The translations under genes and the position numbers were made by a program. Under the pieces are notes generated by a model. That model was not told the DNA's origin. It did not search any database and saw only the letters and a program-made list of their open reading frames with translations. This document shows, in pieces, positions 4,655 to 47,684 of a stretch of DNA of 50,048 nt. The stretch comes from Escherichia phage vB_EcoS_IME347: sequence record MH051918; one strand, given 5' to 3'. Every line of letters begins with the position of its first letter. The first letter of the stretch is position 1.

Positions 4655-4694
4655 CACGAATTGCTAAAACAATAATCCGGGGCTATGCCATAAT
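4651..4694 (+). promoter_or_regulatory. box/-10 promoter cassette
   Basis: Box ATAGCACGAATTGCTAAA. Inverted repeat GGGGCTAT/ATAGCCCC. 22 nt spacing to TGcCATAAT (hexamer 4689-4694). Confidence 0.65.
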
Positions 4695-4725
4695 AGCCCC
4701 ACACCAAACGAAAGAGGAAGTAGAT

Positions 4726-7174: not shown

Positions 7175-7217
7175 TAGCACGAATTGCTAAAAACTCGGCG
7201 GGGTAAGCTGTTATAGT
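7174..7217 (+). promoter_or_regulatory. box/-10 promoter cassette
   Basis: Box ATAGCACGAATTGCTAAA. Inverted repeat GGGGTAA/TTACCCC. 22 nt spacing to TGtTATAGT (hexamer 7212-7217). Confidence 0.65.
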
Positions 7218-7253
7218 TACCCCATCGAAAACAACCAATCAGAGGAAACGCGA

Positions 7254-9537: not shown

Positions 9538-9561
9538 AAACCCGCCTCGGCGGGTTTTTTT
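9538..9561 (+). terminator. intrinsic terminator (end of left-arm early block)
   Basis: Stem CCCGC-ctcg-GCGGG (9541-9554) followed by T7. Confidence 0.8.
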
Positions 9562-9580
9562 ACGTCTGGAGTATGATAAA

Positions 9581-9598
9581 ATAGCACGAAATGTTAAA
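9581..9598 (+). promoter_or_regulatory. box copy in the terS leader
   Basis: ATAGCACGAAATGTTAAA lies between TGaTAAAAT (9574-9582) and the GGAGGA RBS. No -10 lies 22 nt downstream. Confidence 0.45.
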
Positions 9599-9614
9599 CA
9601 TCGGAGGACGTTTT

Positions 9615-19843: not shown

Positions 19844-19867
19844 GGGGGCGCTTGCGCTCCCTTTTTT
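19844..19867 (+). terminator. intrinsic terminator after the tail tube gene
   Basis: GGGGGCG-cttg-CGCTCCC (one G.U pair) followed by T6. Confidence 0.8.
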
Positions 19868-19871
19868 GTTT

Positions 19872-19880
19872 CTGTAGAAT
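19872..19880 (+). promoter_or_regulatory. CTGTAGAAT -10-like nonamer after a terminator
   Basis: Lies 5 nt after the T-run of terminator 19844-19867. The motif recurs at 23924, 26057, 41647 and 37379 (minus strand). Confidence 0.4.
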
Positions 19881-20582: not shown

Positions 20583-20605
20583 AGCCGCCTTCGGGCGGTT
20601 TTTTT
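20583..20605 (+). terminator. intrinsic terminator after the chaperone genes
   Basis: CCGCC-ttcg-GGCGG followed by T7. Confidence 0.75.
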
Positions 20606-20623
20606 GTATCTGGAGGAATAATT

Positions 20624-23895: not shown

Positions 23896-23919
23896 AGCCC
23901 GCCTTGCGCGGGTTTTTTT
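23896..23919 (+). terminator. intrinsic terminator after the M-like gene
   Basis: CCCGC-cttgc-GCGGG followed by T7. The core CCCGCCTTGCGCGGGTTTTTTT is identical to the copy at 26031-26052. Confidence 0.8.
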
Positions 23920-23923
23920 ATAG

Positions 23924-23932
23924 CTGTAGAAT
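23924..23932 (+). promoter_or_regulatory. CTGTAGAAT -10-like nonamer after a terminator
   Basis: Lies 5 nt after the T-run of terminator 23896-23919, upstream of the L-like gene. Confidence 0.4.
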
Positions 23933-26028: not shown

Positions 26029-26053
26029 GACCCGCCTTGCGCGGGTTTTTTTT
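26029..26053 (+). terminator. intrinsic terminator after the I-like gene
   Basis: CCCGC-cttgc-GCGGG followed by T8. Confidence 0.8.
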
Positions 26054-26056
26054 CGC

Positions 26057-26065
26057 CTGTATAAT
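26057..26065 (+). promoter_or_regulatory. CTGTATAAT -10-like nonamer after a terminator
   Basis: Lies 4 nt after the T-run of terminator 26029-26053, upstream of the J-like gene. Confidence 0.4.
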
Positions 26066-26079
26066 GGCATCACCGATAA

Positions 26080-26097
26080 ATAGCACAAAAGGTTAAA
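26080..26097 (+). promoter_or_regulatory. box copy in the J-like gene leader
   Basis: ATAGCACAAAAGGTTAAA lies 14 nt after CTGTATAAT (26057-26065) and 4 nt before ATG 26102. Confidence 0.45.
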
Positions 26098-26101
26098 CAT
26101 C

Positions 26102-29100
26102 ATGAATCAAAAAGTGATAAGCGGCTCAAAGGGTGGCGGCGGAAGTCCGCACAAGCCCGTTGAAATGGAAGATAACCTGATCTCCATCAACAAAATCAGA
26201 GTTCTACTCGCTGTGTCTGACGGTGAAGTAGATCCCGATTTCGATATGTCCATGTTGTACTTGGACAACGTTCCAGTGATGAACAAAGACGGAACTTACA
26301 ACTACGAAGGAATCAAGGCGGAGTTCCGCCCCGGCACTCAGACGCAGGATTACATTCAGGGGTTCACCGACAGCGCAAGCGAAGTCACTATGAACCGGGT
26401 AATCAAAACTGACACCCCGTTTAGCATCAACGTTACGAACCGGAACCTTTCGGCAATCCGAATCAAGATGTTCATGGCTCGCGGCGTAAAGGTTGAGAGC
26501 AACGGCGACAAGAACGGCGTTCGCGTTGAATACAAGGTTGAAATGGCTGTGGATGGTGGAGCTTTCGAACCTGCACTCACTGACGTGATTGACGGAAAAA
26601 CAATGTCAGGATATGACCGTAGCCGCCGCATTAATCTGCCCTCGTTCAACTCTCAGGTGATCTTGCGAGTGTCTCGCGTAACGCCGGACTCCGACGATTC
26701 CAACCTGATTGACGAGATCCAGTTGCGCAGCTATGCGGAGGTTATTGACGCGAAGTTTCGTTATCCGCTGACCGGGCTACTGTTCGTTGAGTTCGATTCG
26801 CAGATGTTCCCGAACCAGATCCCGAACATTTCAATCAAAAAGAAATGGAAGGTTGTCAATGTACCGACGAACTACAACCCGGTAACTCGTGATTACTCTG
26901 GCACTTGGGACGGAACGTTTAAAAAGGCGTGGACGAACAACCCGGCTTGGGTTCTGTACGACATTATCACCAACCAACGTTACGGGCTTGACCAACGCGA
27001 GCTTGGGATTGATGTTGATAAGTGGTCGCTTTACGACGCCGGGCGCTATTGTGATCAGATGGTTCCAGACGGAAAGGGCGGAACCGAGCCGCGATATCTA
27101 TGCGACGTGGTTATTCAATCGCAGGTTGAGGCGTTTAAACTGGTGCGCGATATCTGCTCAATCTTCCGGGGTATGAGCTTTTGGAACGGCGAAAGCCTGT
27201 CTATTGTGATCGACAAGCCGCGCGAGCCGTCTTACATCTTCACGAACGAGAACGTTGTGAACGGTAATTTCTCATACGCTTTCGCGAGTGAGAAAAGCAT
27301 GTATACGGTGTGCAATGTCCAGTTTGATGATGAAGAGAACCTTTATCAACAGGACGTGGAGCCTGTTTTCGATACTGATGCGGCTCGCAGATTCGGCAAC
27401 AACCCGACGAGCATTACAGCGATCGGATGTACCCGGCGCAGTGAGGCTAATCGCCGGGGGCGCTGGATTCTCAGAACCAATTTACGAAGCACTACGATCA
27501 GTTTTGCTACCGGATTGGAAGGAATGATTCCGCAGATTGGCGATGTTATCGCGGTGGCGGATAACTCATTCTCAAGCAACCTCACGCTTAACCTTTCTGG
27601 TCGCGTGATGGAAGTTTCGGGATTGCAGGTTTTCACCGCCTTTAAGGTTGACGCTCGCGCAGGTGATTTTATTGTCGTAAATAAGCCGGATGGGAAGCCC
27701 GAGAAGAGGACTATCGCATCGGTATCGCCTGACGGCAAGACTATACAGTTAAACGTCGCATTCAGCTTCTCTGTGGCTCCTAACACTATCTTTGCAATTG
27801 ACCGCACGGACGTAGCGTTACAGCAATTCGTTGTTACGGATATTTCCAAGGGCGACAATGAAGAAGAGTTTGTGTTTAGCATTACTGCGGTTGAGTATGA
27901 CCCGAACAAGTACGACGCGATCGACTACGGAGTAAACGTTGACGAAAGGCCTACAAGCATTGTCGATCCTGACAAGCTTCCTCAGCCGCAAAACGTGCAG
28001 ATTGAGTCCTTCTCTCGTGTGGTTCAGGGCGTAAGCGTTGAAACGATGGTTATCAGTTGGGATAAGGTTCAGTATGCGGCTCAGTACGAAATCCAATGGC
28101 GAAAGGGTAATGGCAACTGGATTAACACGACACCAACGGCGAACAATGAAACGTTTATCGAAGGCATTTACGCCGGGCAATACTTCGTTCGGGTTCGCGC
28201 TGTATCGTCGGCGGGCAATGCTTCAATGTGGTCTGAAGTTGTCAGCGCATCACTGACGGGTAAAGTCGGAGAGCCGGGTTCGCCAATTAACTTCACGGCG
28301 TCCGATGATGTTGTTTTTGGCATTCGCCTGAAATGGGGCATGCCGGAAGGGACTGAAGATACCGCATATATTGAGGTTCAGCAGTCACCAAACAACAGCA
28401 TTGAAAATGCATCACTGCTAACGCTCGTTCCATACCCTCAACATGAGTATTTCCATACTCCACTTGAGGCCGGGAAGATGATCTTCTACCGCATTCGTGC
28501 GATAGACAGGATCGGAAATGTGTCCGGGTGGACTGACCTGATTCCGGGGATTGCCTCAACTGACGTTGAGAGCATTATCGGGGAAATCAAGGTTGATATC
28601 GAAAACTCCGAGGGGTTCAAGTGGTTGCAGGAAAATGCGGTAGATGCAAACTCGAAGATTCACGGGGCGGCTGAAGCGATAATCGAAACCACGCTGGCTA
28701 ACGATCGTGATGTTCGTATTCAGCGCAAGCGGAACGGGAAGTTCACTGCTCAGTTTAAGCAGTCATTCCAGTTAATCGCAGATGAAACGCAAGCAAGAGT
28801 TGAGCAGTATCAGGAGTTACAGGCCGACTTTGACGGAAAGATAACCGCAACTTCAACTCAGCTTAACCAGGCGATCGCTAACGAAAGGGAGGCGAGAACA
28901 ACTCAGGTAAACCAGATTAGCGCAACGTTCGGCGGAAACCTTGACGATCTTAGCGATAGGGTTGATGGTGATATCGGGGATCTTAATGGAAGGGTTGATG
29001 GTGAGGTTCGGGCTCGTCAAGCTGCGATCTCAAACGTAAACCAAGCCATTGCGAACGAAACCGAGGCGCGAGTTCAGGCTATCAATGATTTGAAAGCGCA

Positions 29101-29683
29101 GGTTGGCAGCGACATTCAAGGCCAGCTAACGCAGTTGAATCAGGCGATCGCCAATGAGACTTCGGCGCGAGTTTCGGCTGATACGGCTCTTAGCACAAGG
29201 ATCGGGAATAACACTGCGGCTCTGAACCAGAAACTTGATTCATGGGCTAACGCAACATCGGTTGGCGCTATGTACGGCGTCAAGCTTGGGTTGAGGTATA
29301 ACGGGGTTGACTACTCCGCAGGGTTGGCAATGTCTCTGGTTGGATCTGGTAATACTGTCAAGTCTCAGCTTTTGCTACAGGCCGACAGGTTCGCAGTTTT
29401 CAACGGGGCAAACAACCAATACCGATATCCGTTCGTTGTTGAGGGCGGGCAGGTTATACTCAGCAGCACGGTTATTAAGGACGGTTTCATTACGAACGCG
29501 ATGATCGGGAACGAGATCAAGTCAAACAACTATGTTGCAGGTCAGACAGGATGGAGGATTGATAAGAACGGTAACTTTGAGATTAACGGCAAGACGGGAA
29601 CCGGAAGGTTGACCATCAACAATAACACTGTGAGCGTTTACGACGCGAACAACCGCCTACGCGTTCGCATGGGCTTGTGGTAA
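26102..29683 (+). CDS. tail tip / host-specificity protein J-like, 1193 aa
   Basis: The N-terminus GSKGGGGSPHKPVE...DNL is typical of lambda J. FN3-like middle. C-terminal coiled repeats LNQAIANE-EAR occur three times. Confidence 0.9.
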   Translation: MNQKVISGSKGGGGSPHKPVEMEDNLISINKIRVLLAVSDGEVDPDFDMSMLYLDNVPVMNKDGTYNYEGIKAEFRPGTQTQDYIQGFTDSASEVTMNRVIKTDTPFSINVTNRNLSAIRIKMFMARGVKVESNGDKNGVRVEYKVEMAVDGGAFEPALTDVIDGKTMSGYDRSRRINLPSFNSQVILRVSRVTPDSDDSNLIDEIQLRSYAEVIDAKFRYPLTGLLFVEFDSQMFPNQIPNISIKKKWKVVNVPTNYNPVTRDYSGTWDGTFKKAWTNNPAWVLYDIITNQRYGLDQRELGIDVDKWSLYDAGRYCDQMVPDGKGGTEPRYLCDVVIQSQVEAFKLVRDICSIFRGMSFWNGESLSIVIDKPREPSYIFTNENVVNGNFSYAFASEKSMYTVCNVQFDDEENLYQQDVEPVFDTDAARRFGNNPTSITAIGCTRRSEANRRGRWILRTNLRSTTISFATGLEGMIPQIGDVIAVADNSFSSNLTLNLSGRVMEVSGLQVFTAFKVDARAGDFIVVNKPDGKPEKRTIASVSPDGKTIQLNVAFSFSVAPNTIFAIDRTDVALQQFVVTDISKGDNEEEFVFSITAVEYDPNKYDAIDYGVNVDERPTSIVDPDKLPQPQNVQIESFSRVVQGVSVETMVISWDKVQYAAQYEIQWRKGNGNWINTTPTANNETFIEGIYAGQYFVRVRAVSSAGNASMWSEVVSASLTGKVGEPGSPINFTASDDVVFGIRLKWGMPEGTEDTAYIEVQQSPNNSIENASLLTLVPYPQHEYFHTPLEAGKMIFYRIRAIDRIGNVSGWTDLIPGIASTDVESIIGEIKVDIENSEGFKWLQENAVDANSKIHGAAEAIIETTLANDRDVRIQRKRNGKFTAQFKQSFQLIADETQARVEQYQELQADFDGKITATSTQLNQAIANEREARTTQVNQISATFGGNLDDLSDRVDGDIGDLNGRVDGEVRARQAAISNVNQAIANETEARVQAINDLKAQVGSDIQGQLTQLNQAIANETSARVSADTALSTRIGNNTAALNQKLDSWANATSVGAMYGVKLGLRYNGVDYSAGLAMSLVGSGNTVKSQLLLQADRFAVFNGANNQYRYPFVVEGGQVILSSTVIKDGFITNAMIGNEIKSNNYVAGQTGWRIDKNGNFEINGKTGTGRLTINNNTVSVYDANNRLRVRMGLW
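28862..29170 (+). repeat. three LNQAIANE(R/T)(E/S)AR heptad-like repeats in the J-like C-terminal region
   Basis: DNA copies start near 28862, 29036 and 29135. Two carry the GCGATCGC palindrome. Confidence 0.7.
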
Positions 29684-29684
29684 T

Positions 29685-29712
29685 AAAAAAGGCTCCTTAT
29701 TGGAGCCTTTTC
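29685..29712. terminator. bidirectional terminator between the J-like gene and the leftward genes
   Basis: A6, then GGCTCC-ttatt-GGAGCC, then T4. Confidence 0.75.
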
Positions 29713-29714
29713 TT

Positions 29715-30053
29715 TTACATGATGGTTACTTTGTTGTCGTCTTTCATTTTTCGTGAAGTCTGTGTAGCGATCAGGTCGTCATATCCCATCTTTCCTTTGT
29801 TCCAGTGAAAGACGGTATTGTAGACGCCGGAATCTTTATAGCACATTACATGTACGTTCTTACGCAGGTGCTTGTCGAAAATCACGTTGTCTGATTGGTT
29901 GATCGTCACGGTCTTTTCGGCGCAGTTGATTGTAGCATGAGTCGAACCGTTCAGAGAGAGGCGGCTGGCGTCAACCGGATATCCGATATTTGCATTGAAT
30001 GCCATAGCGTTAAAAGAAGCTGTGAACATGATAGCGGCGATGATTTTTTTCAT
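29715..30053 (-). CDS. secreted/periplasmic protein with signal peptide, 112 aa
   Basis: MKKIIAAIMFTASFNAMA|FN is a type I signal peptide with no lipobox Cys. Has its own early-type cassette 30085-30128. Convergent with the J-like gene. Confidence 0.75.
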   Translation of the reverse strand: MKKIIAAIMFTASFNAMAFNANIGYPVDASRLSLNGSTHATINCAEKTVTINQSDNVIFDKHLRKNVHVMCYKDSGVYNTVFHWNKGKMGYDDLIATQTSRKMKDDNKVTIM

Positions 30054-30084
30054 TGGTGTTTCCTCGTTTCGTTTTGATGAATGC

Positions 30085-30128
30085 AGTATAGCCCCGTTTC
30101 CGGGGCTTGTTTTAGCAATTCGTGCTGT
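30085..30128 (-). promoter_or_regulatory. box/-10 promoter cassette
   Basis: Read on the minus strand: ACAGCACGAATTGCTAAA. Inverted repeat GCCCCG/CGGGGC. 22 nt spacing to TATACT. Drives the secreted-protein gene. Confidence 0.6.
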
Positions 30129-30778
30129 CAGTTGTAACCTTGGAATCTGGCATAAGGAATCTTGAGCCGTCCACGGCCTGAGAATATCTCAGCGAAAGAC
30201 TTCTGGTTATTCCTTATCCATGTTGTTTGCAACTGCGATCCCGTCCATCTCATTAGGTTCCCCGAGTAGCCAACGGCGAAACCGTCGTCACTCCACTGCC
30301 CGAAGCAGTTATTCCATAGGAAAAACGGGTTGAATCCCGGCGTCACCGACACGACCCGACCCTCAAGGTTTACGTTTCCGGCAACGTCAAGGAATCCCAT
30401 AATTCGAGGCATTGTCGCAGCGCTCGCGGCAGACCAGACAAGATTCCCGCTGGCGTCGAAAACGTCCAAGTAGCCCGACACGTTGGGCTTGTTTCTTGAC
30501 GTCCTAATTACCCTGATCGAGTTCGGAACGAACAGGTTCGCGCCGGGATATCCCCAACCGTTATTGGCGGTGAACTGAATCCAGTATAGATAACCATCCT
30601 CCCGCTTGAAATTGTAGTTCAGATAAGCGAGGGAGCTTACATTTCCAAATGGAGTTGACACGTTGTAATCGCCTGTATTCAACATTCCGGGCGTAACGAT
30701 GGAATCGAAAATCGTGTGTTTCTGATCGGAGTTGATCAGGACTACCCCGGCGTCATTCAAAACCTCAAAACCTGACAT
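30128..30778 (-). CDS. putative tail fibre / receptor-binding accessory protein, 216 aa
   Basis: Track ORF with an AAGGGGGA RBS. The N-terminal motif GFEVLNDAGVVLINSD recurs inside the protein (DVFDASGNLVWSA) and in the next gene. Confidence 0.55.
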   Translation of the reverse strand: MSGFEVLNDAGVVLINSDQKHTIFDSIVTPGMLNTGDYNVSTPFGNVSSLAYLNYNFKREDGYLYWIQFTANNGWGYPGANLFVPNSIRVIRTSRNKPNVSGYLDVFDASGNLVWSAASAATMPRIMGFLDVAGNVNLEGRVVSVTPGFNPFFLWNNCFGQWSDDGFAVGYSGNLMRWTGSQLQTTWIRNNQKSFAEIFSGRGRLKIPYARFQGYN

Positions 30779-30787
30779 AATTCCCCC

Positions 30788-31096
30788 TTAGTTGAACATG
30801 TAGACTTCTACGTATAGCGTGAGATCCACCGATGGATTTCTCCCCGGAACGTAGATGATATCAATGCCTCCCGATCTGCACACGGGGGCGTAATCGGTAA
30901 CGTATGTCGCTCCGAGGTTCGCACCCATCACGGAGGCGAACGAATTCGAATCCGTCACTCCCGCGATATTTAGCTGAACCCTGTCAACCGATCGCGGAAA
31001 GCTGACATTATACCGCCCGACAAATCGGGTGCTGTAATCACCGAGATCGACAACGAGATTTCCCGAAGCGTCCCAACATTGCAAGCCAGCCGCCAT
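30788..31096 (-). CDS. putative tail fibre accessory protein, 102 aa
   Basis: Track ORF with a GGGAGGAAAA RBS. N-terminus GLQCWDASGNLVVDLGD is paralogous to the 30128-30778 product. Sigma70-like promoter 31128-31156 upstream. Confidence 0.55.
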   Translation of the reverse strand: MAAGLQCWDASGNLVVDLGDYSTRFVGRYNVSFPRSVDRVQLNIAGVTDSNSFASVMGANLGATYVTDYAPVCRSGGIDIIYVPGRNPSVDLTLYVEVYMFN

Positions 31097-31368: not shown

Positions 31369-31497
31369 GCTCAATTTTCTACATCATAATCATGTGAATT
31401 CTGTATTGCGGTATTTTTCTATAAACACAGTTACATTGTATACAGTGGTTACGCCGCAATAAAACACGCCTCAAACGCTTGATATTTATGGACTCGC

Positions 31498-47640: not shown

Positions 47641-47684
47641 ATAATATCAAATCACCCCGAGGTTGTTTTAGCAATTCGTGCTAT
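47641..47684 (-). promoter_or_regulatory. box/-10 promoter cassette
   Basis: Read on the minus strand: ATAGCACGAATTGCTAAA. Inverted repeat GGGGTGA/TCACCCC. 22 nt spacing to TGaTATTAT. Confidence 0.65.

Follow-up and report, generated by a model that had tools for sequence, protein, structure and literature searches.

An exported TonB C-terminal-domain-like protein encoded beside the receptor-binding genes of Escherichia phage vB_EcoS_IME347 is a candidate superinfection-exclusion factor

Introduction

What is the role of a small exported protein whose gene is positioned between the central tail fibre gene of a T1-like phage and the genes that appear to determine its receptor? This question is raised by a locus of Escherichia phage vB_EcoS_IME347 (IME347), which we analyzed within the complete 50,048-nt stretch of sequence record MH051918, referred to here as the window. 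The gene encodes a protein of 112 amino acids (aa) that is 100% identical to gp53 (HOT14_gp53) of IME347. In our best explanation, which we consider probable as a whole, the gene is the third member of a horizontally mobile receptor-specificity cassette, and its product would be an exported copy of the TonB C-terminal domain (CTD) that blocks the receptor YncD/PqqU from the periplasm and so confers superinfection exclusion, a reading that draws on sequence comparison and structural modelling.

The receptor of IME347 has been identified as YncD by deletion, complementation and adsorption experiments, and infection by this T1-like phage was found to be independent of TonB (PMC6499177); YncD is also targeted by phage IsaakIselin (PMC8594841). 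YncD is a TonB-dependent transporter, now named PqqU, which acts as a high-affinity importer of pyrroloquinoline quinone (PQQ) (PMC7193533, PMC12124388). In a study published in Sci Adv in 2025 (PMC12124388), three IsaakIselin proteins were modelled with PqqU, in silico only. Two receptor-binding proteins (RBPs), RBP-1 (QXV80560) and RBP-2 (QXV80561), were predicted to dimerise on the extracellular face of PqqU, and a third protein, SIP-1 (QXV80559), was docked by AlphaFold2-multimer on the periplasmic side and proposed as a putative superinfection-blocking protein, with a signal peptide predicted by SignalP-6.0 and a Foldseek match to the TonB C-terminus (PMC12124388). The same authors found that the PQQ dose blocking IsaakIselin was 1000-fold lower upon deletion of tonB, and argued that PQQ-bound, loop-closed PqqU is unable to bind the phage (PMC12124388). 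The exclusion idea is already published for the IsaakIselin orthologue, and gp53 of IME347 is a new member of this in-silico-described family.

The gene and its exported product

The coding sequence and its immediate signals lie on the minus strand, as follows (coordinates refer to the window).

29715-30053, minus strand: coding sequence of the exported TonB-CTD-like protein, 112 aa, ATG start (open reading frame and translation)
30061-30065, minus strand: Shine-Dalgarno sequence GAGGA, 7 nt 5' of the ATG (sequence)
30000-30053, minus strand: Sec type I signal peptide MKKIIAAIMFTASFNAMA, codons 1-18, predicted cleavage at AMA/FN (sequence, hydropathy and conservation in homologues)

The N-terminus consists of MKK, which provides a positive n-region, followed by the hydrophobic core IIAAIMFTASF (11 residues, Kyte-Doolittle 2.3) and by NAMA and then FN, with the A-x-A pattern at positions -3/-1. 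Nothing resembling a lipobox was found in the protein, and its first Cys is residue 44. Cleavage would leave a mature chain of 94 aa, with a mass of ~10.6 kDa and an isoelectric point of ~9. The initial annotation, which was made from the letters of the DNA, had described a 112-aa product with a type I signal peptide ending at AMA/FN and with no lipobox, and both statements are borne out by translation and hydropathy.

The same annotation had reported no recognisable similarity, which stands for domain and defence-system searches, as scans against Pfam, NCBIfam and PADLOC of the protein and of its two neighbour proteins returned no match; it does not stand for remote homology, given the likeness to the TonB CTD described below. 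The sole family match of the protein was phrog_25729, annotated as 'unknown function' (E = 9e-37). A megablast of the locus against the phage collection yielded a single match, of 118 nt, in the 3' end of the J-like gene, and the same protein is also encoded on 50-kb metagenome contigs with unchanged neighbours.

The GC (guanine plus cytosine) content of the gene is 44%, compared with 49.7% for the whole window and 50-53% for the neighbour genes. The features of a moron, namely an own predicted promoter, an own terminator and a deviant base composition, are all present, in agreement with the earlier designation of the gene as a candidate exclusion moron.

An orthologue of SIP-1 with a remote likeness to the TonB C-terminal domain

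The IsaakIselin protein SIP-1 (bas10_0024, QXV80559) shares 54% identity with the 112-aa protein over residues 1-109 (E = 3e-32). The two agree in the type of signal, in the position of the gene (downstream of the RBP genes and convergent on J), in the promoter cassette and in the TonB-CTD-like predicted fold. They differ in that IsaakIselin is classed in Tempevirinae/Henuseptimavirus, whereas the protein studied here comes from IME347, and in that the latter exceeds SIP-1 by 2 aa and has diverged from it in the C-terminal tail.

An AlphaFold2 monomer model of the 112-aa protein was built from the family alignment. Its mean predicted local distance difference test (pLDDT) score was 75, with core blocks at 84-93 and residues 89-98 below 50, and its topology, helix-strand-strand-helix-strand, is that of the TonB-CTD fold (short helix, two strands, helix, strand). 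The top Foldseek matches were TonB and FusB structures, including 2GSK_B and 2GRX_C, with probabilities up to 0.99 and E values of only 0.02-1; TonB CTDs stood clearly ahead of TolA among the fold matches, and none of the structures of Llp, Cor or Rtp45, which are exclusion proteins of other phages, was among them. A fold search of BFVD retrieved only three members of the protein's own family.

Profile comparisons pointed in the same direction. When the family profile was compared with PDB sequences, TonB accounted for four of the five best matches (E 0.7-1.5), with nigYPvdAaRlsLsGevev...F...Y aligned against qpqYParAqalriEGqVkV...F...Y. In these profile alignments, the statistics of which are weak, residues Y25-P26, A29, G36, F59 and Y72 fall on the YP...A...G...F...Y positions of TonB. 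Using hhalign, we obtained P = 0.0013 when the family was compared with the TonB CTD of Escherichia coli by itself and P = 6e-4 when it was compared with a small alignment of TonBs, with the register unchanged; this alignment was shallow, as the database search with the TonB CTD gave only close enterobacterial TonBs.

Judged from the model, the 112-aa protein is a stand-alone domain with a remote likeness to the TonB CTD and should not be called a TonB, because the Pfam TonB_C model misses all members of the family. The fold and the YP motif are common to the protein and the TonB CTD (PF03544; E. coli TonB 150-239, PDB 2GRX and 2GSK; FusB, 7ZC8). Unlike TonB, the protein has neither an N-terminal inner-membrane anchor nor a Pro-rich spacer, and it therefore cannot couple to ExbB/ExbD. 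The family also differs from TonB in being exported by a cleavable signal or a lipobox, in having an extra invariant Cys pair, in being phage-encoded and in lying below Pfam detection.

Conservation of the family and its two export forms

Homologues were detected by tblastn in 42 Escherichia and Klebsiella phage records, in addition to many metagenome clusters. Among 24 aligned members, P26, A29, R31, C44, C71 and Y72 are invariant, and Y25, S33, L34, G36, F59 and R101 are nearly so. The invariant C44/C71 pair fits an intramolecular disulfide formed in the periplasm, and a Sec signal or a lipobox is present in the aligned members, except for one with an apparently truncated recorded N-terminus.

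Two forms of export can be distinguished in the family. The type I site AMA/(F/L)N is conserved in the members from Drexlerviridae. In HK639, Eeyore and six Enterobacteriaceae prophages, the N-terminus instead reads MK(R/L)LFAA..LL(L/A/V)(A/V)GC followed by T, A or S, which constitutes a lipobox, and a linker of ~10 residues separates it from the conserved domain. With a residue other than Asp at position +2, these members are predicted to be outer-membrane lipoproteins.

Four metagenome representatives (P0024, P0025, P0026 and P0028) are larger, at 196-271 aa, with a long N-terminal extension and, immediately ahead of the TonB-like domain, an internal hydrophobic segment. These may be membrane-anchored proteins of a more TonB-like architecture, or else their starts may have been mis-called.

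The gene as part of a receptor-specificity cassette

The genes that flank the 112-aa gene, and the terminator on its J-like side, are listed below.

26102-29683, plus strand: J-like central tail fibre / tail tip protein, 1193 aa (Pfam, PHROG)
29687-29711, both strands: bidirectional intrinsic terminator, common to the J-like gene (plus strand) and the 112-aa gene (minus strand) (folding, U-runs)
30128-30778, minus strand: 216-aa protein, orthologue of the predicted RBP-1 (QXV80560), phrog_4524, DUF8377 (74% identity to bas10_0025)
30788-31096, minus strand: 102-aa protein, orthologue of the predicted RBP-2 (QXV80561), phrog_7961 (64% identity to bas10_0026)

The J-like protein contains the Pfam domains FNIII-A_GpJ, Phage-tail_3 and Phage_Tail_Tip, and its gene is convergent with the 112-aa gene. 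The initial annotation had placed the latter between the J-like and fibre genes; the J-like neighbour is correct, and the 'fibre genes' are rather orthologues of RBP-1 and RBP-2 of IsaakIselin.

The linkage of these genes is strict: at each of the 13 related loci examined, both RBP orthologues accompany the 112-aa homologue, and a J-like gene is adjacent. These loci come from virulent and temperate phages and from prophages, namely five Drexlerviridae, the 45-kb phage Eeyore, the lambdoid phage HK639 and six Enterobacteriaceae prophages. Orientation varies by lineage: the three cassette genes run antisense to J in Drexlerviridae, whereas the RBP pair of HK639, Eeyore and the prophages follows J on the same strand, and the gene for the exported protein is on the opposite strand, antisense to the tail operon.

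The closest overall genome relative, BrunoManser, has a J that is 78% identical and is devoid of all three cassette genes. The corresponding position is occupied by phrog_557, phrog_425 and Cor (phrog_1119), that is, a FhuA-type cor cassette, and the linkage of the cor cassette to FhuA has been described (PMC13164509). This supports the earlier remark that the gene sits where cor-like genes are found. The hypervariable locus downstream of gpJ has been tied to terminal-receptor specificity in the BASEL papers and in a 2026 preprint, which locate exclusion factors in it as well. We consider it probable, with the same confidence as for our explanation as a whole, that the 112-aa gene is the third gene of a horizontally mobile cassette that also comprises RBP-2 and RBP-1.

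The terminator at 29687-29711 has a stem of 10-12 bp between the two stop codons and a U-run on each strand, with folding energies of -19.0 kcal/mol (plus strand) and -19.5 kcal/mol (minus strand) and z values of -7.0 and -7.4. The hairpin is strong on both strands, as the description of a bidirectional terminator had implied.

Two repeat features were observed in the genes around the cassette. The distal part of the J-like protein is encoded with three imperfect 43-nt repeats (28855-29170), which specify a heptad-like motif of the type N-Q-A-I-A-N-E and coincide with coiled-coil-type Pfam noise matches (SF-assemblin, Apolipoprotein) at residues 870-1050. In addition, a 59-nt direct repeat with 80% identity, containing ACAGTGACATTGTATACAGTG, occurs at 311-369 and 31423-31481, the second copy lying between two divergent genes, one for RBP-2 (start at 31096, minus strand) and one for exonuclease VIII (31610, plus strand).

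A dedicated promoter cassette of the non-structural class

Upstream of the Shine-Dalgarno sequence, a promoter cassette was identified, with the following elements.

30085-30128, minus strand: promoter cassette composed of a box, a 20-nt spacer and a -10 element (repeat search, alignment)
30128-30111, minus strand: box ACAGCACGAATTGCTAAA, containing the half-palindrome AGCAC-N5-TGCTA (repeat search)
30107-30090, minus strand: spacer hairpin AGCCCCGGAAACGGGGCT (sequence)
30090-30085, minus strand: -10 element TATACT (sequence)

Sixteen other box/-10 cassettes in the window align in register with this copy, with invariant positions located in the box (A.AGCAC...T.G.TAA) and in the -10. A census of the window returned 30 box matches, ~27 of them with a -10-like hexamer at a spacing of 19-23 nt, mostly 20 nt. 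The start codon of the 112-aa gene lies 75 nt after the box start, and for nearly all of the ~27 cassettes this distance is 72-85 nt. The genes behind the cassettes include those for an Erf-like annealing protein, a primase, two helicases, a DNA methyltransferase and a polynucleotide kinase, as well as many small open reading frames, and none of the cassettes counted in the window census falls inside the structural block (~9.6-29.7 kb). These observations uphold the earlier claim that the gene has its own box/-10 cassette and is set apart from the structural genes. From the promoter class alone, we infer that the gene would be expressed early.

The same cassette is present upstream of the orthologues in IsaakIselin (Bas10), JohannLBurckhardt (Bas11) and NBD2. 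In Klebsiella phage KL3 (L006 4490-4501), the SIP-1-like gene begins 10 nt after the RBP-1-like gene, with no cassette between them, and it is probably co-transcribed with the receptor-binding genes.

As for the cassettes in general, their consensus is A(T/C)AGCAC-N5-TG(C/T)TAAA, followed by a spacer of ~20 nt and a TATAAT-like hexamer. Examples are located at 969, 1234, 2251, 3641, 4651, 5471, 5977, 7174, 7642, 32687, 37341, 39882 and 40901 on the plus strand and at 30128, 36900, 46638, 47140, 47684, 48876, 49515 and 49879 on the minus strand. The palindrome of the box, TAGCA-N5-TGCTA, is centred near -42 of the inferred start, a geometry like that of class II activator sites. In many cassettes, a GC-rich dyad lies within the spacer or spans the -10, such as GGGGCTAT..ATAGCCCC, at positions that include 4672-4700, 7195-7220, 47650-47675 (minus strand) and 30090-30107, and these may be combined terminator/promoter junctions. 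The dyad of the 112-aa gene (30090-30107) is just upstream of the -10 and, on the plus strand, forms a terminator-like hairpin followed by TGTTTT.

Three other readings of the cassette elements were rejected. The TTGCTA of the box was not accepted as an ordinary -35 element, as it is 22 nt from the -10; a repeated promoter of hairpin plus TATACT was dismissed, as this combination is unique and the recurring element is the box; and the hairpin was discounted as a minus-strand terminator of the upstream RBP genes, as no U-run follows it.

Junctions in the structural block are of another type, in which a GC hairpin with a T-run precedes TGTA(G/T)AAT (9540-9602, 19846-19880, 20584-20618, 23898-23932 and 26031-26101). 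At 9577 and at 26076, the latter before the J gene, a box-like sequence is found downstream of the -10 and directly before the start codon, so that -10 and box stand in the reverse order to that seen in the non-structural cassettes.

Proposed function and competing explanations

The initial annotation had proposed superinfection exclusion or receptor masking for this gene, and this proposal is supported by our sequence and model comparisons, because the TonB-CTD fold is predicted for a protein of a phage whose receptor, YncD/PqqU, is a TonB-dependent transporter; because a receptor-specific gene pair accompanies the gene beside J without exception in the 13 loci examined; because a cor cassette occupies the same locus in BrunoManser; because temperate-phage and prophage homologues have a lipobox, in common with the known exclusion lipoproteins Cor, Llp and Rtp45; and because SIP-1 was independently docked on the periplasmic face of PqqU (PMC12124388).

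The following sequence of events can be envisaged. The cassette of RBP-2, RBP-1 and the 112-aa protein would allow T1-like and lambdoid siphophages to use YncD/PqqU as terminal receptor. After infection, or from the prophage in temperate relatives, the gene would be transcribed from its own promoter of the non-structural class, and Sec export would deliver a disulfide-stabilised, stand-alone copy of the TonB CTD of ~10.6 kDa to the periplasm. On the periplasmic face of YncD/PqqU, this protein might take the place of TonB at the TonB box or the plug, after which the transporter would be unable to bind the RBP-1/RBP-2 pair of the phage on the outside, resulting in superinfection exclusion and in progeny being kept from adsorbing to debris. 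Two sub-mechanisms could bring this about, either a reverse allostery like that of Llp (cf. PMC9586334) or a competition with TonB that would leave PqqU trapped in the PQQ-bound, loop-closed and phage-refractory state. We infer the binding of the receptor, the exclusion phenotype and the early timing from these comparisons. A more elaborate version, which is tentative and on balance doubtful, holds that the protein is a receptor-matched TonB decoy, as opposed to an allosteric jammer of the Llp kind. It would occupy the TonB box of PqqU, such that TonB would not reset the transporter, PqqU would stay in the PQQ-bound, loop-closed state and exclusion would depend on PQQ; the family would then represent the first virus-captured TonB domain, with changes between a soluble and a lipid-anchored form accompanying the transfer of the cassette among T1-like phages, other siphophages and prophages.

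Several points weigh against receptor exclusion by a TonB-like domain. The sequence similarity to TonB_C is weak, with hhalign probabilities of 18-29% and PDB profile E values in the range given above; Pfam TonB_C (PF03544) matched 0/24 family members at E <= 10; and the quality of the model is moderate overall, in view of its mean pLDDT of 75 and of residues 89-98 scoring below 50. The 112-aa protein has none of the lipid anchors found in all proven exclusion factors at this locus, and the KL3 gene, with no promoter of its own, indicates that separate early expression is not universal. In the literature searched, no experimental test of any family member was found, the only statement being the in-silico one, and the 2026 preprint refers in loose terms to a YncD-associated 'RBP' family at the locus, with the gene unspecified.

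The protein might alternatively be a general TonB antagonist, a soluble CTD decoy acting on the TonB boxes of many transporters with no specificity for YncD/PqqU, which would stop TonB-dependent uptake and exclude competitors that depend on TonB, T1, phi80 and group B colicins among them. The TonB CTD uses strand addition to bind TonB boxes in many transporters, and IME347, being TonB-independent, would be unharmed by such a block. However, the gene is strictly co-inherited with a YncD/PqqU-specific RBP pair at every one of the 13 loci, and the whole trio is swapped for the cor trio in BrunoManser even though J is 78% identical, which argues for a receptor-matched partner. In addition, the AlphaFold2-multimer docking of the orthologue was on PqqU, and a broad block of TonB would not stop superinfection by the phage's own kind, so a general antagonist appears unlikely.

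Two further roles would place the protein outside receptor exclusion altogether. As a component of the virion or of its assembly, it would join the 216-aa and 102-aa proteins at the tail tip as a third subunit with a receptor-binding or chaperone function, a role that accords with its constant position beside the RBP pair and with its apparent co-transcription with the RBP genes in KL3. A Sec signal or lipobox and an invariant Cys pair nevertheless point to the periplasm, whereas tails assemble in the cytoplasm, and the promoter of the non-structural class, the antisense orientation to the tail genes in temperate phages and the periplasmic TonB domain fold all speak against it, which makes this role highly improbable. 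Only slightly less remote is a periplasmic role of another kind, in which the protein would engage Tol-Pal, another 'box'-bearing envelope partner or peptidoglycan and modulate envelope integrity or lysis; its periplasmic location would be the same, but TonB CTDs outrank TolA by a clear margin, and the gene lies outside the lysis module and is linked to receptor-specificity genes.

Comparison with known exclusion factors and implications

Superinfection exclusion directed at FhuA offers a parallel. Cor (of T1, phi80, N15 and HK022) and Llp (of T5) are outer-membrane lipoproteins that exclude FhuA-dependent phages, and Cor/Llp bind the periplasmic face of this TonB-dependent transporter, making it refractory to the RBP (PMC9586334). 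The cor gene shares the genomic position of the 112-aa gene, next to receptor-specificity genes downstream of J. Like the 112-aa protein, Cor and Llp are small and exported, and their intramolecular disulfide may be paralleled by the invariant Cys pair. The sequence families are nevertheless unrelated (phrog_1119 for Cor, phrog_25729 for the 112-aa protein), the Llp fold (PDB 8A60) was not matched, and the 112-aa protein differs from Cor/Llp in having no lipobox and in the receptor concerned, YncD/PqqU instead of FhuA.

Rtp45 and SE_Oeko are exclusion lipoproteins that act on the periplasmic side of LptD (bioRxiv 10.1101/2025.07.07.663478). Similar to the 112-aa gene, the gene for Rtp45 is a neighbour of an RBP gene in Drexlerviridae, within this same hypervariable region downstream of J, and Rtp45 targets the receptor of its own phage from the periplasm, as is proposed here for the 112-aa protein. 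In contrast to the latter, Rtp45 is a lipoprotein of ~6 kDa, with a target that is not TonB-dependent and with no TonB-like fold. A disulfide is present in each of Llp, Cor and Rtp45, comparable to the invariant Cys pair of the 112-aa family.

Several findings of the present analysis go beyond the published prediction for IsaakIselin (PMC12124388). Temperate phages and prophages encode the protein as a lipoprotein; a Cys pair is invariant, and the YP motif could be mapped; the gene has a non-structural-class promoter dedicated to it, which KL3 lacks; and the cassette is linked in 13/13 loci, in an orientation that is flipped between phage lineages. The value of this work is mainly confirmatory, for the phage that defined YncD as a receptor, and is complemented by the features that hold across the family, namely the lipoprotein variants, the invariant Cys pair, the dedicated promoter and the cassette linkage.

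The exclusion factors proven so far at this locus (Cor, Llp and Rtp45) are all tiny lipoproteins. If the proposed function is true, a domain of the host energy transducer would have been reused to silence a TonB-dependent transporter, providing a second and mechanistically distinct route to receptor inactivation from the periplasm. The protein would then also be a natural high-affinity binder of the periplasmic face of one transporter, and its gene would serve as a marker for predicting the use of YncD/PqqU from phage genomes.
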